Source: Escherichia coli
GTDB lineage: Bacteria > Pseudomonadota > Gammaproteobacteria > Enterobacterales > Enterobacteriaceae
Assembly: GCF_050920415.1 (NCBI RefSeq)
Contig: NZ_CP169309.1
DNA: 64,000 nucleotides
Strand: one strand, 5' to 3'
Part shown: positions 2,795 to 5,112 of the stretch, piece after piece
Numbering within the stretch: the stretch's first letter is position 1
Layout of the letters: the number at the start of each line of letters is the position of its first letter
Made by a program: the position numbers and the translations under genes
Notes under the pieces: generated by a model
What the model was told of the DNA's origin: nothing
Databases searched by the model: none
What the model saw: only the letters and a program-made list of their open reading frames with translations

Positions 2795-2932
2795 GATGGA
2801 GGATATATGAGTGAAGTAACAGATTTAGTTGTTATTGAAAAAGCAAATGCAATGACTGTATTTCAGTCTGCCGACCAGATTGAAGAAATCTGAACCGCCC
2901 CGGGTTTCCTGGAGAGTGTTTTATCTGTGAAC

Positions 2933-3820
2933 TCAGGCTGCCAGATCATTGTTTCCGATGGAAGCATAATAAGCTTTTTCTGCTTCTGCCGGAGGAGTAT
3001 GGCCCAGCCTTCCCAGCAATCGTCGATTGTTATACCAGTCCACCCACGTGAGTGTGGCCAGTTCCACTTCTGCACGGTTTTTCCAGCTCTTACGGTGTAT
3101 TACCTCCGCTTTGTAAAGACCATTGATGCTCTCAGCCATCGCGTTGTCATACGAGTCGCCTGTACTCCCTGTTGATGCCAGCAGTTTTGCTTCTTTTAGT
3201 CGCTCCGTATAGGCCAGTGACACATACTGAGAGCCTTTATCGCTGTGATGGATGGTGCCAGACGGACGACGGGCCCACAACGCCTGCTCCAGCGCATCCA
3301 GCACGAATGTCGTTTCCATAGACGATGAGACCCGCCACCCCACGATGTATCCGGCAAACACATCAATGATGAACGCCACATAGACGAAGCCCTGCCATGT
3401 GCTGACGTAAGTAAAATCAGCCACCCACAGCTGGTCAGGACGTTCTGCCACGAACTGACGGTTTACGCGGTCACCTGTGGCAACGGTTTTCCGGCTGACG
3501 GTAGTGCGGACCTTTTTACCCCGGAGAACACCGGCAAGTCCCATAACCGCCATGAGGCGCGCCACTGTACATCTGGCCACCCTGATTCCTTCCCGTAACA
3601 ACTGACGCCAGACTTTACGCACACCGTACACCTGATGATTTTCATCGTATACGCGCTGTATCTCTCTCTTCAGCCAGTCATCGCGCTGCGCACGGGCACT
3701 GCGTTTATCAGGATGATGCCGCTGCTGCTGACAATGGTAATACGTTGACGGGGCGATATGCAGTTCACTGCATACCGGTCCGACCCCGTACTGCTCACGC
3801 AGCTTATCCAGCAGTGGCAT
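2933..3820 (-). CDS. IS629 OrfB (DDE transposase catalytic part, 295 aa; normally made as an OrfAB frameshift fusion)
   Basis: DDE-type IS3-family motifs (ADFTYV..., HSDKGSQY..., DNAMAES). Confidence 0.85.
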   Translation of the reverse strand: MPLLDKLREQYGVGPVCSELHIAPSTYYHCQQQRHHPDKRSARAQRDDWLKREIQRVYDENHQVYGVRKVWRQLLREGIRVARCTVARLMAVMGLAGVLRGKKVRTTVSRKTVATGDRVNRQFVAERPDQLWVADFTYVSTWQGFVYVAFIIDVFAGYIVGWRVSSSMETTFVLDALEQALWARRPSGTIHHSDKGSQYVSLAYTERLKEAKLLASTGSTGDSYDNAMAESINGLYKAEVIHRKSWKNRAEVELATLTWVDWYNNRRLLGRLGHTPPAEAEKAYYASIGNNDLAA

Positions 3821-4146
3821 TATTTTTTCCAGAGGCGGTCGAACTCCGCCTTCGCAAAATAAGCGGAAGCCTGGCGAAGGATATCGTTACTGCGGCGCAG
3901 TTCACGATTTTCACGTTCCAGCTCTTTCAGACGCTGACGTTCAGCGGTGGTGAGCCCACCATCACCGCTCCCGGTATCCCTCTCATGCTGGCGAACCCAG
4001 ACACGCAGAGTCTCTGGCGTACAGCCAATCTTTGGAGCAATGGAACAAATTGCCGCCCATTGTGAGTCATATTCGCCCTGACTTTCCAGAACCATACGAA
4101 CTGCGCGTTGACGGACTTCGGGGGAAAAACGAGTATTTTTAGTCAT
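3820..4146 (-). CDS. IS629 OrfA (HTH transposase N-terminal part, 108 aa)
   Basis: [21 protein letters not shown]... typical IS3-family OrfA with leucine zipper; stop overlaps the orfB ATG. Confidence 0.85.
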
Positions 4147-5112
4147 CCTGTTTACCTCTTTCTCAGGAAGTTTAGTCTCCAGGATTTCCGGGGCGGTTCA
4201 ATCCTTCAAAAGGTTGAACGTGAAGTTATGTCCTTTGTGCCTGATATCACAACGGCAAAGGGCAGAAAGGAGATCGCTTCTCTGGCGTATAAAGTTGCGC
4301 AGACGAAAACATATCTCGATGGTCTTGGCAAAGACCTTGTTGCTGAACTGAAGGAAATTCCAAAGCTAATTGATGCCAACCGCAAGACAGTGCGCGATCG
4401 CCTTGATGAGCTGAAAGCCAAGGCACGCCAGCCTCTTACTGATTATGAGGAAGAACAGGCGCGGATTAAAGCCGAAGAAGAAGCTAAGGCAGCAGCTGAA
4501 GCTCTCGCAAAGCAAATTGAGTCTGACCATGAAATAGCGATTTTGATGGATCGCGAATTTGACCGCCAAAGAGAAGAGGCAAGACTCAAAGCTGAGCAGG
4601 AAAAGCGAGAGCATGAAGAACGCTTAAAAAGAGAAGCTGAAGAGAAAGCAAGAGCAGAAGCCGAAGCAAAGGCAAAAGCCGAAATTGAAGCAGCCGCAAG
4701 GCGAGAAGCAGAAGCTAAGGCCGCAGCGGAACGTGCAGAGCGTGAACGCATTGAGGCCGAGCAACGAGCACAGCGCGAAGCAAAAGAGGCAGCAGAACGA
4801 GCTGAAAGAGAAAAGCAGGCAGCAATTGAAGCAGAACGCAGAAAAGCACAGGAGGAGGCTGAACGAATCCGTCGCGAGGCTGAAGCAAAAGAGCAAGCCA
4901 GAATCGCAGAAGAAAAAAGAATCAAGGACGAAGAAGAGCACAGAGCAAAGGATAAAGCTCACCGGAAAGAAGTAAATAACAAAATACTTGCTGACCTTAT
5001 CAAGGTTGGCGCATCAGAAGATGTTGCTAAAAATATCATAACAGCCATCGTAAAAGGCGAAGTATTCGCAACAAAAATAACCTACTAATAAAACCAACAT
5101 AAGGAACCACCC

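Follow-up and report, generated by a model that had tools for sequence, protein, structure and literature searches.

The locus raises two questions: how an insertion sequence (IS) came to lie within a gene of the early-left (pL) operon of a lambda-like prophage, and what this means for the genes that follow. We analysed a stretch of 64,000 nucleotides from Escherichia coli (contig NZ_CP169309.1), referred to here as the window; all positions are those of the window. The evidence set out below makes it very probable that an IS629-group element inserted cleanly and recently, knocking out one gene of the pL operon and causing partial polarity at most.

Setting of the insertion

The prophage is integrated at att-lambda in the E. 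coli chromosome, between ybhB (bio side) and ybhC (gal side); its replication, late and structural genes would lie to the left of window position 1. In the window, the + strand carries full-length genes for cI, N, cIII, kil, a Rad52-like annealing protein, ssb, abc2, xis and int. The operator motif, ATAAC-N4-GTTAT, is clustered, with three sites between cro and cI (325-387) and others at 1643-1681; with a 5-nt spacing only chance matches were obtained, 4 nt being the correct spacing. The putative pL and its two operator sites lie at 1643-1684 (+ strand), with a promoter-like site at 1656-1684. Judged by its resemblance to lambdoid nut sites, a nutL-like site follows at 1731-1771 (+ strand), consisting of the boxA-like sequence GCTCTTTAACA (1731-1741) and a boxB-like hairpin of 5-6 bp beside it (1754-1771), the energy of which is not unusual compared with shuffled sequences (z = -0.75). 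The next features on this strand are an N-like antiterminator gene (1879-2184; PHROG 271, E = 3e-36) and an intrinsic terminator at a position like that of tL1 (2766-2794; 8-bp stem and a run of seven Ts, -13.2 kcal/mol). The terminator, which is kept in intact alleles, directly precedes the interrupted gene.

The first genes downstream of the IS (5113-5381, + strand) are cIII (5113-5244; PHROG 550) and kil (5229-5381; PHROG 2055), names that RefSeq also gives to their orthologues, and no open reading frame from there as far as xis and int is truncated. On one strand, a putative promoter with operators leads into N, cIII, kil, the recombination genes, xis and int, as in a lambdoid pL operon. 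The order cI, pL/OL, nutL-like site, N, terminator, accessory genes, cIII, kil, recombination genes, xis, int matches that of phage lambda, as does the chromosomal location between ybhB and ybhC. The prophage differs from lambda in its immunity, N allele and accessory genes, and its recombination module is composed of Rad52-like protein, SSB and Abc2 instead of Exo, Bet and Gam. A first-pass annotation of this DNA had placed the IS in the pL operon between N and the cIII, kil and recombination genes, and antisense to them. The PHROG assignments agree with this position, and the transposase genes are on the - strand whereas N, cIII and kil are on the + strand.

The insertion sequence

The IS occupies 2891-4200 (1310 bp, - strand) and is apparently intact. 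Within the 64-kb window, TGAACCGCCCCGG is present at two places and no others, 2891-2903 (+ strand) and 4188-4200 (- strand); 0.03 matches would be expected by chance, and none of 100 shuffled sequences reached two. The right inverted repeat (2891-2915), located 3' of orfB, begins with 5'-TG, and the left inverted repeat (4176-4200), upstream of orfA, ends with CA-3'. Their 25-nt arms are 88% complementary, giving the imperfect TG...CA inverted repeats of the IS3 family. The IS is flanked by two copies of the trinucleotide ATC (2888-2890 and 4201-4203), a target-site duplication of the kind made by IS3-family elements and within the range of 3-4 bp known for IS629 (PMC3271280).

Two consecutive reading frames are found in the element, in frames 0 and -1. 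orfA (3820-4146, - strand) encodes the DNA-binding part of the transposase (108 aa), and orfB (2933-3820, - strand) the DDE catalytic part (295 aa from its own ATG). The orfA stop codon is overlapped by the orfB start codon (ATAATG), an arrangement expected of the IS3 family. OrfB is an IS3-type DDE transposase by its match to NCBIfam NF033516 (313.9 bits, cut-off 160), and the transposase reading frames also match PHROG transposase families. A frameshift region at 3749-3865 (- strand) combines an A6 slippery run (3823-3828) with an ALIL pseudoknot, which matches Rfam model RF01497 over its full length (122.1 bits, gathering score 50). An OrfAB fusion is accordingly predicted to be made by programmed -1 frameshifting between orfA and orfB. 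Boundaries, repeats, reading frames and pseudoknot all agree with the earlier description of a 1310-bp IS3-family element at 2891-4200, and the ATC duplication that this description included is present at both edges.

To name the element we used the rule for an ISfinder isoform, namely full length and approximately 95% or more nucleotide identity. The name IS629 is based on copies so annotated by others and on PMC3271280, which gives the ranges for isoforms: IS629 subtypes are 4-5% apart, and IS1203 and IS3411 are isoforms. Compared with the annotated IS629 of the O157:H7 phage Stx2a_F422 (AP012531), the IS is 97.0% identical over 1310 bp, with 39 substitutions, no indels, and a patch of five substitutions at IS positions 292-298. 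The encoded proteins are identical at 104 of 108 residues (OrfA, 96%) and 289 of 295 residues (OrfB, 98%) to those of the F422 copy. A Shigella flexneri plasmid copy has 97.8% nucleotide identity. The full-length identity of 97.0% to an annotated copy places the element in the IS629/IS1203/IS3411 isoform group, and so upholds the IS629 assignment of the first-pass annotation. With IS629 (isoforms IS1203, IS1203v and IS3411; O157:H7, O111, O26 and Shigella) it has in common the length of 1310 bp, the TGAACCGCCCCGG termini, the orfA/orfB organisation, the A6 slippery run, the ALIL pseudoknot and the 3-bp duplication.

Unlike the IS629 copy of O157, the IS in the window is a distinct sequence variant of which close copies are rare: only 43 of 6993 matching records have at least 99% identity. 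Those among the matches listed stem from isolates of bovine, crow and food origin, with no O157 among their names. The notion that such an element is characteristic of O157:H7 and Shigella proved too narrow, as IS629-type sequence is matched in 4250 of the 5426 complete E. coli genomes, and copies close to full length are present in 3042.

The interrupted gene

The 5' fragment of the interrupted gene (2807-2890, + strand) starts with an ATG at 2807, is identical to the beginning of intact alleles, and comprises exactly 28 codons, the last of which is ATC. A TGA stop codon follows directly, supplied by the IS itself (2891-2893). The 3' fragment (4204-5088, + strand) contains codons 29-322 and the natural stop. 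When position 2890 is joined to 4204, a reading frame of 969 nt results, which ends at 5088 and encodes 322 aa, 321 of them identical in the intact protein WP_000005785.1. The rebuilt frame thus bears out what had been read from the window at first: a split after codon 28, a frame that resumes after the duplication, and a product of about 322 aa ending at 5088.

The uninterrupted region is present as one piece, at approximately 98% identity, in 103 E. coli records. In intact alleles (CP062910, HCM-22C-2) there is a single ATC at the join, and the flanks from the window abut with neither a gap nor an extra base. Because the single ATC is located exactly at the join, we conclude that the IS arrived by simple transposition. 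An uninterrupted allele is what the first-pass annotation had proposed to look for as a check. It would have read a missing flanking direct repeat in the reference as a sign of recombination; the duplication is present in the window, and the empty sites have a single copy.

Could the IS nevertheless mark a scar, left where two IS copies recombined or where an IS brought about a deletion or inversion, so that it now joins flanks not originally contiguous? In early-left regions there are IS629-group copies that have no duplications and adjoin deletions, for example in HCM-22C-2, 2015C-4944 and N63. At the present site, however, the 3-bp duplication is perfect, the flanks join as in intact alleles without gain or loss of a base, and the near-identity of the rebuilt protein to the intact one refutes such an origin, which we consider to have practically no chance of being correct.

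The interrupted protein belongs to PHROG 1376 (E = 4.3e-110; its residues 1-322 align with profile positions 1-362), a family without assigned function. It is helical and rich in Glu, Lys, Arg and Ala. A conserved, invariant VPDxxTxKGR motif is located downstream of the truncation point. As the protein is truncated at 28 residues, upstream of this motif, the gene is knocked out. The full protein has no match in Pfam (its N-terminal 116 aa gave insignificant ones only), nor in NCBIfam or PADLOC. A sequence search of the PDB returned a single, low-complexity match, to Zuotin (E = 0.005), and a search for homologues returned fragments only, the sole annotation among them being 'TolA/colicin import', a label attributable to the helix rich in Glu, Lys and Ala. 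An AlphaFold model of residues 1-160 (pLDDT 87, pTM 0.47) has two short helices and one long helix; it matches no fold in the PDB (best E = 3.6). The IS allele may offer a natural knockout for the study of this conserved gene.

Apparent uniqueness and probable origin of the allele

The junction between IS and gene was found in none of the 5426 complete E. coli genomes, and a search for the exact junction in GTDB representative genomes and IMG/VR gave no match. No phage record matched the interrupted allele at 80% or more, and neither of two possible products of the 3' fragment has an exact counterpart among proteins on record. An allele not found elsewhere (complete E. coli genomes, GTDB representatives, IMG/VR) might arouse the suspicion of an assembly artefact, in which a repeated IS has been mis-joined into the gene; multi-copy repeats of the IS629 type often break or mis-join short-read assemblies. 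But both junctions are perfect to the base and flanked by the canonical 3-bp duplication, which no random mis-join would produce, and the window contains a single copy of the IS. We therefore regard an artefact as extremely improbable. Rather, the lack of any other lesion in the gene or the IS, together with the absence of the allele from the collections searched, argues for a recent simple insertion.

The chromosomal part of the window at 40000-48000 is 100.0% identical to strain MFDS1022581. This strain has an empty att-lambda and contains copies of the IS variant at 99.7-99.8% identity. With the variant resident in the host lineage, the probable source of the element is the host genome, with insertion after lysogeny. 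The sequence of events would then be as follows. An intact IS629-group copy in the host's own genome, transposing by the copy-out/paste-in route of the IS3 family, would have landed, after integration of the prophage, between codons 28 and 29 of the gene for the 322-aa helical protein. Transposition duplicated the 3-bp target ATC and cut the protein at 28 residues.

The insertion is a routine strain-specific polymorphism in a non-essential prophage gene and represents no new biological system. That pathogenic E. coli diversify through polymorphic IS629 insertions in their prophages is well documented, and such insertions already serve for IS-printing. The allele disables one accessory phage gene. 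As a marker of the source strain it is new and apparently unique; it has little import beyond strain typing.

Effect on transcription

After induction, an antisense IS in this position might act as a strong polar block of cIII, kil, the recombination genes, xis and int, thereby contributing to crypticity, as the first-pass annotation had suspected. Translation ends at 2891-2893, leaving approximately 2.2 kb of RNA untranslated before cIII (5113); the uncoupling of translation lays bare Rho sites and gives polarity (PMC12360218). The antisense RNA of the IS is C-rich and G-poor (29.5% C and 24.1% G, C/G reaching 1.9), a composition favourable to Rho, and two weak terminator-like hairpins are present in the IS on the + strand, at 2900-2912 and 3169-3184. 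Terminator-like sites in the region are, however, no more frequent than in shuffled sequences (11 compared with 7.1 ± 2.8).

Other features of the operon also stand against a strong block. Both the N gene and the nutL-like site are upstream of the IS, and lambda-N complexes protect the elongation complex from Rho-dependent termination (PMC12360218). The good intrinsic terminator directly in front of the interrupted gene means that only antiterminated polymerase should reach the IS. Judging from this arrangement, a polymerase arriving there should already be N-antiterminated and largely resistant to Rho-dependent polarity. Some polarity is possible, since antitermination is never complete. The downstream reading frames are all intact, and early-left genes other than xis and int are dispensable for the lytic growth of lambda, which further counts against a block of consequence.

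A parallel is provided by the Stx2a phages PA45 (KP682389) and Stx2a_F422, in which an IS629 is likewise antisense to pL, after N and before ssb, cIII and kil. The F422 copy also has a 3-bp duplication, but its sequence is AAA. The two phages differ from the window prophage in having a 933W-like backbone at wrbA, an insertion that is intergenic or in another gene, and a different IS subtype. PA45 DNA was recovered after ciprofloxacin induction from DNase-treated, PEG-precipitated particles (PMC4587872). Thus, PA45 is inducible and packaged in spite of its analogous insertion; being a different, 933W-like phage, it offers an indirect precedent.

Taken with the points above, these observations make strong polarity, or crypticity due to the IS, unlikely. 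The favoured reading, a clean insertion with partial polarity at most, would entail the loss of one gene and at most a partial drop in the expression of cIII, kil, the recombination genes, xis and int. In the lysogen, where pL is repressed, the insertion should be nearly neutral. We looked for an outward IS promoter able to restart downstream transcription and detected no promoter-like site on the + strand near 4000-4300. The IS allele may serve as a natural test of how far N-type antitermination overrides IS polarity; neither this use nor that as a knockout is conceptually new.

Other insertions in early-left regions

In the O26 strains RM8426 and 2012C-4606, an IS629-group element likewise divides the orthologous 'TolA-like' coiled-coil gene before cIII and kil; the prophage that carries this gene also occupies the ybhC site. 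In these strains, unlike in the window, the element is oriented in sense with the gene, approximately 612 nt into it; the gene already had an internal stop, and the prophage shows visible degradation, with cII and sieB truncated and an IS600 nearby. A further 29 genomes, retrieved with at least 80% cover, were rejected as same-site insertions: their IS is upstream of the gene at other sites, and several lack duplications. A query with the IS flipped gave 6 genomes with the sense orientation, compared with the 29 antisense ones. We draw no conclusion about orientation bias, given the clonality of these genomes and a search that links pieces on the same strand only.

Does the recurrence of IS629-type elements between N and cIII/kil reflect selection? 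Such insertions might tame the prophage by lowering leaky expression of toxic early-left genes (Kil) or by impairing excision, to the benefit of the lysogen. Several of them appear to be independent (window, PA45/F422, the 29 antisense genomes, O26 RM8426). Against this, IS629 is enriched in prophages generally, with 62% of the copies in O157 located there (PMC3271280). Sites and orientations differ (29 antisense and 6 sense genomes, many of them clonal), and several of the IS-bearing prophages are already degraded. We consider selection of this kind improbable, and hold out equally little prospect that the interval is a recurrent landing zone in which IS629-group insertions are kept because they reduce the expression of Kil, CIII, Xis and Int, be it leaky or induced. 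If it were true, retention of an IS between N and cIII/kil would be a step in prophage domestication and not neutral junk.

The occurrences of IS629-group elements in this interval comprise the window, PA45/F422, approximately 35 further E. coli genomes and, inside the same gene, the O26 strains.

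Structure of the insertion

The insertion sequence (IS) occupies a 1310-bp block at 2891-4200, delimited by reading 2500-5400 and by scripted cutting. It starts with TGAACCGCCCCGG and its other end is the reverse complement of the same motif; the terminal 13-mer has only two matches in the 64-kb window, both at the IS ends (0.03 expected; two matches were reached in 0/100 shuffles). The terminal inverted repeats are 25 nt long, 88% complementary, and end in 5'-TG...CA-3'. ATC directly flanks the IS on both sides, at 2888-2890 and 4201-4203. In the interrupted gene, which encodes a coiled-coil protein and begins with an ATG at 2807, the first ATC is codon 28, and the in-frame TGA that follows (2891-2893) comes from the IS. 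When 2890 is joined to 4204, a 969-nt ORF results that encodes 322 residues and ends at 5088. The structural reading of the first-pass annotation was correct: its coordinates, codon number, target duplication and reconstructed length were all exact on re-reading and scripted reconstruction. A mechanical 326-aa ORF (4108-5088, plus strand) starts at a TTG in the left end of the IS, crosses IRL and continues into the 3' part of the gene; we found no promoter-like site or expression evidence for this ORF, and no called protein on record.

Complete E. coli genomes match an artificial empty site (2300-2890 joined to 4204-5400) as a single unbroken piece, at ~98% identity, in 103 records. In two of these, CP062910 and HCM-22C-2, the left and right flanks of the window align end to end, sharing one ATC, with no bases gained or lost, and the rebuilt protein is identical to the intact 322-aa WP_000005785.1 at 321/322 positions. 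Thus, the uninterrupted allele sought in relatives does exist, and its single ATC at the join identifies a simple insertion; the colinear empty sites and the rebuilt protein rule out a scar left by recombination or by an IS-mediated deletion. No further lesion is present in the gene, which argues that the insertion is recent. The exact insertion was not found in 5426 complete E. coli genomes, phage records, GTDB representative genomes and IMG/VR.

Identity of the element

The IS contains two genes on the minus strand, orfA (3820-4146, 108 aa) and orfB (2933-3820, 295 aa), which meet directly past an A6 run, where the ATG of orfB overlaps the stop of orfA. OrfB scores 313.9 bits against the NCBI curated IS3-transposase model (cut-off 160), and a full-length ALIL frameshift pseudoknot is present at 3749-3865 on the minus strand (Rfam, 122 bits vs 50). 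The IS differs from the copy annotated as IS629 in the O157:H7 Stx2a phage F422 by 39 substitutions and no indels (97.0% identity; 104/108 residues of OrfA and 289/295 of OrfB are identical), and shares 97.8% identity with a copy from a plasmid of Shigella flexneri. IS629 copies of O157:H7 form subtypes that are 4-5% apart, IS1203 and IS3411 are IS629 isoforms, and IS629 target duplications are 3-4 bp long (Rump et al., PMC3271280). Since the identities to the F422 and Shigella copies lie within this published spread, the element is, judged from its sequence, a member of the IS629 isoform group, as first annotated; it looks fully functional. Five substitutions within 7 nt (3182-3188, IS positions 292-298; GCAGTTTTGC vs GTAATCCGGC) set it apart from the five further members of the IS629 group in the alignment. 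This cluster replaces G by K at one position of OrfB and gives rise to a weak hairpin with a T-run on the plus strand (3169-3184).

The interrupted gene

The 322-aa protein belongs to PHROG 1376 (E = 4e-110, full length), a family of no known function. Its orthologues are named 'coiled-coil domain-containing protein', 'TolA' or 'hypothetical' in RefSeq, the name TolA reflecting only a long helix rich in E, K, R and A. Searches of Pfam, NCBIfam and PADLOC gave no matches, and no meaningful match was obtained in the PDB. Homologues occur in Enterobacteriaceae, Pseudomonas, Acinetobacter and Aeromonas; near their N-terminus the motif VPDxxTxKGRxxIAS is strongly conserved, with D42, T45, K47, G48 and R49 invariant. 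In an AlphaFold model of residues 1-160 (pLDDT 87), two short helices and a single long one accompany a loop that bears the motif; the fold has no match. As the insertion follows residue 28, the motif and all that lies beyond it are lost, and the gene is inactivated.

Several long reverse-strand ORFs inside the coiled-coil gene (4366-4975, minus strand; among them 4443-4925 with 160 aa and 4624-4962 with 112 aa) appear to arise from its repetitive GAA/GCA/AAG codon composition and do not look like genes. Comparison with 2807-3046 and 7320-7613 showed that an E. coli protein of 111 aa consists of the first 80 residues of the coiled-coil protein and the C-terminus of Abc2 (DUF2856). This fusion implies a deletion in another prophage that reaches from the coiled-coil gene to abc2, with loss of cIII, kil and the recombination genes.

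Location in the early-left operon

The window starts inside a lambda-like prophage. A cro-like gene (64-309, minus strand) is followed by three ATAAC-N4-GTTAT operators (325-387) between cro and cI, and by a cI-like repressor gene (370-1107, plus strand). Within 1148-1468 are a small membrane-protein ORF and, 3' of it, a strong bidirectional terminator (1449-1468, z = -3.5). The ORF (98 aa, with an N-terminal hydrophobic segment and no significant family match) occupies the place that rexAB has in lambda, between cI and pL. A promoter-like site at 1656-1684, the putative pL, is overlapped by two further operators at 1643-1681 (putative OL). The operator motif has seven matches in the window vs 1.7 expected; the remaining two, both single-mismatch, lie elsewhere. 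By resemblance, a nutL-like site comprises a boxA-like GCTCTTTAACA (1731-1741) and a hairpin (1754-1771). N (1879-2184, plus strand), an ORF without assigned function (2193-2663, plus strand) and a good intrinsic terminator (2766-2794) precede the interrupted gene, and cIII, kil, a Rad52-like annealing protein, SSB, an endonuclease and Abc2 follow in this order on the plus strand, then Ea22-like genes, xis, int (to 12469) and ybhC. All of these ORFs from cI onward are on the plus strand, and every one beyond the IS has its full length. The original placement holds: the IS runs antisense to pL, with N on one side and the cIII/kil/recombination genes on the other. The prophage arm within the window has no other damage; the window does not extend to the replication, late and structural regions.

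The first-pass annotation had also proposed that the antisense IS is probably polar on the whole early-left operon and may contribute to crypticity, a claim that is unsupported and probably overstated. RNA after the new stop codon would be untranslated for ~2.2 kb, up to cIII, and C (29.5%) exceeds G (24.1%) in the antisense IS RNA, with local C/G ratios of up to 1.9; C-rich, G-poor untranslated RNA of this kind is where Rho causes polarity (PMC12360218). However, N and the nutL-like site are upstream of the IS, and polymerase reaching it should already be N-modified because a terminator sits immediately before the interrupted gene. In classical lambda genetics, N relieves the polarity of IS insertions. 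N complexes are described as highly processive and resistant to Rho-dependent termination (PMC12360218). Moreover, there is no strong intrinsic terminator on the plus strand within the IS, and terminator-like matches around it are no more numerous than shuffled sequence gives. A close precedent is the O157:H7 Stx2a phage PA45 (KP682389.1, locus position 2594-3807), 933W-like and of another backbone, with an IS629 in the same antisense orientation between N and ssb/cIII/kil; after induction with ciprofloxacin, its DNA was recovered for sequencing from PEG-precipitated particles that shielded it from DNase (PMC4587872). These points argue against a strong polar effect. Given that pL is repressed in the lysogen, the insertion is probably neutral there, in keeping with the tendency of IS629 to be enriched in prophages generally (62% of O157 copies; PMC3271280).

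Recurrence and spread

F422 (AP012531.1, locus position 1501-2810) likewise carries an IS629 antisense to pL in the N-ssb/cIII/kil interval, with the target duplication AAA. Copies of the IS629 group lie just upstream of the coiled-coil gene, in the sieB or ral region and antisense to pL, in 29 complete E. coli genomes; a sense-oriented copy occurs in six. Some of these copies have a 3-bp duplication (for example AAG in 07_3636), and others, without a duplication, adjoin deletions. In the O26 strains RM8426 and 2012C-4606, whose prophage is at the ybhC site as in the window, a sense-oriented IS629-group copy lies ~612 nt into the orthologous gene, which was a pseudogene with an internal stop before the IS arrived (RM8426, NZ_CP028116.1 894942-902669, reverse complement; split gene at locus position ~2635-4916). 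This is an independent insertion into the same gene. Sites and orientations differ across the interval, and many of the genomes are clonal. We attribute the recurrence to the regional bias towards prophage DNA already known for IS629; a specific hotspot or selection is the one mildly novel alternative, and an unlikely one. The insertion as a whole is a known element showing known behaviour.

The description of IS629 as characteristic of O157:H7 and Shigella is too narrow. IS629-type sequence has matches in 4250 of 5426 complete E. coli genomes (near full-length in 3042) and in 3373 plasmid records, Shigella, Salmonella and Klebsiella among them. The variant in the window is rare, a copy with at least 99% identity being present in only 43 records; the matches listed come from bovine, crow and food isolates. 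One holder, MFDS1022581 (NZ_CP169399.1), is 100.0% identical to the chromosomal segment 40000-48000. The window prophage occupies the classical att-lambda between ybhB and ybhC (12470-12603); in MFDS1022581, the closest complete genome, this site is empty, with ybhB adjoining ybhC, and the prophage is therefore strain-specific. We infer that the IS variant was resident in the host lineage and moved into the prophage after lysogeny.

Further along the chromosome, seven putative tRNA genes (38137-39136, minus strand; five Lys-UUU and two Val-UAC) form what we take to be the usual E. coli lysT-valT-lysW array, which adjoins the tol-pal genes according to the RefSeq annotation of the region matching 40000-48000.
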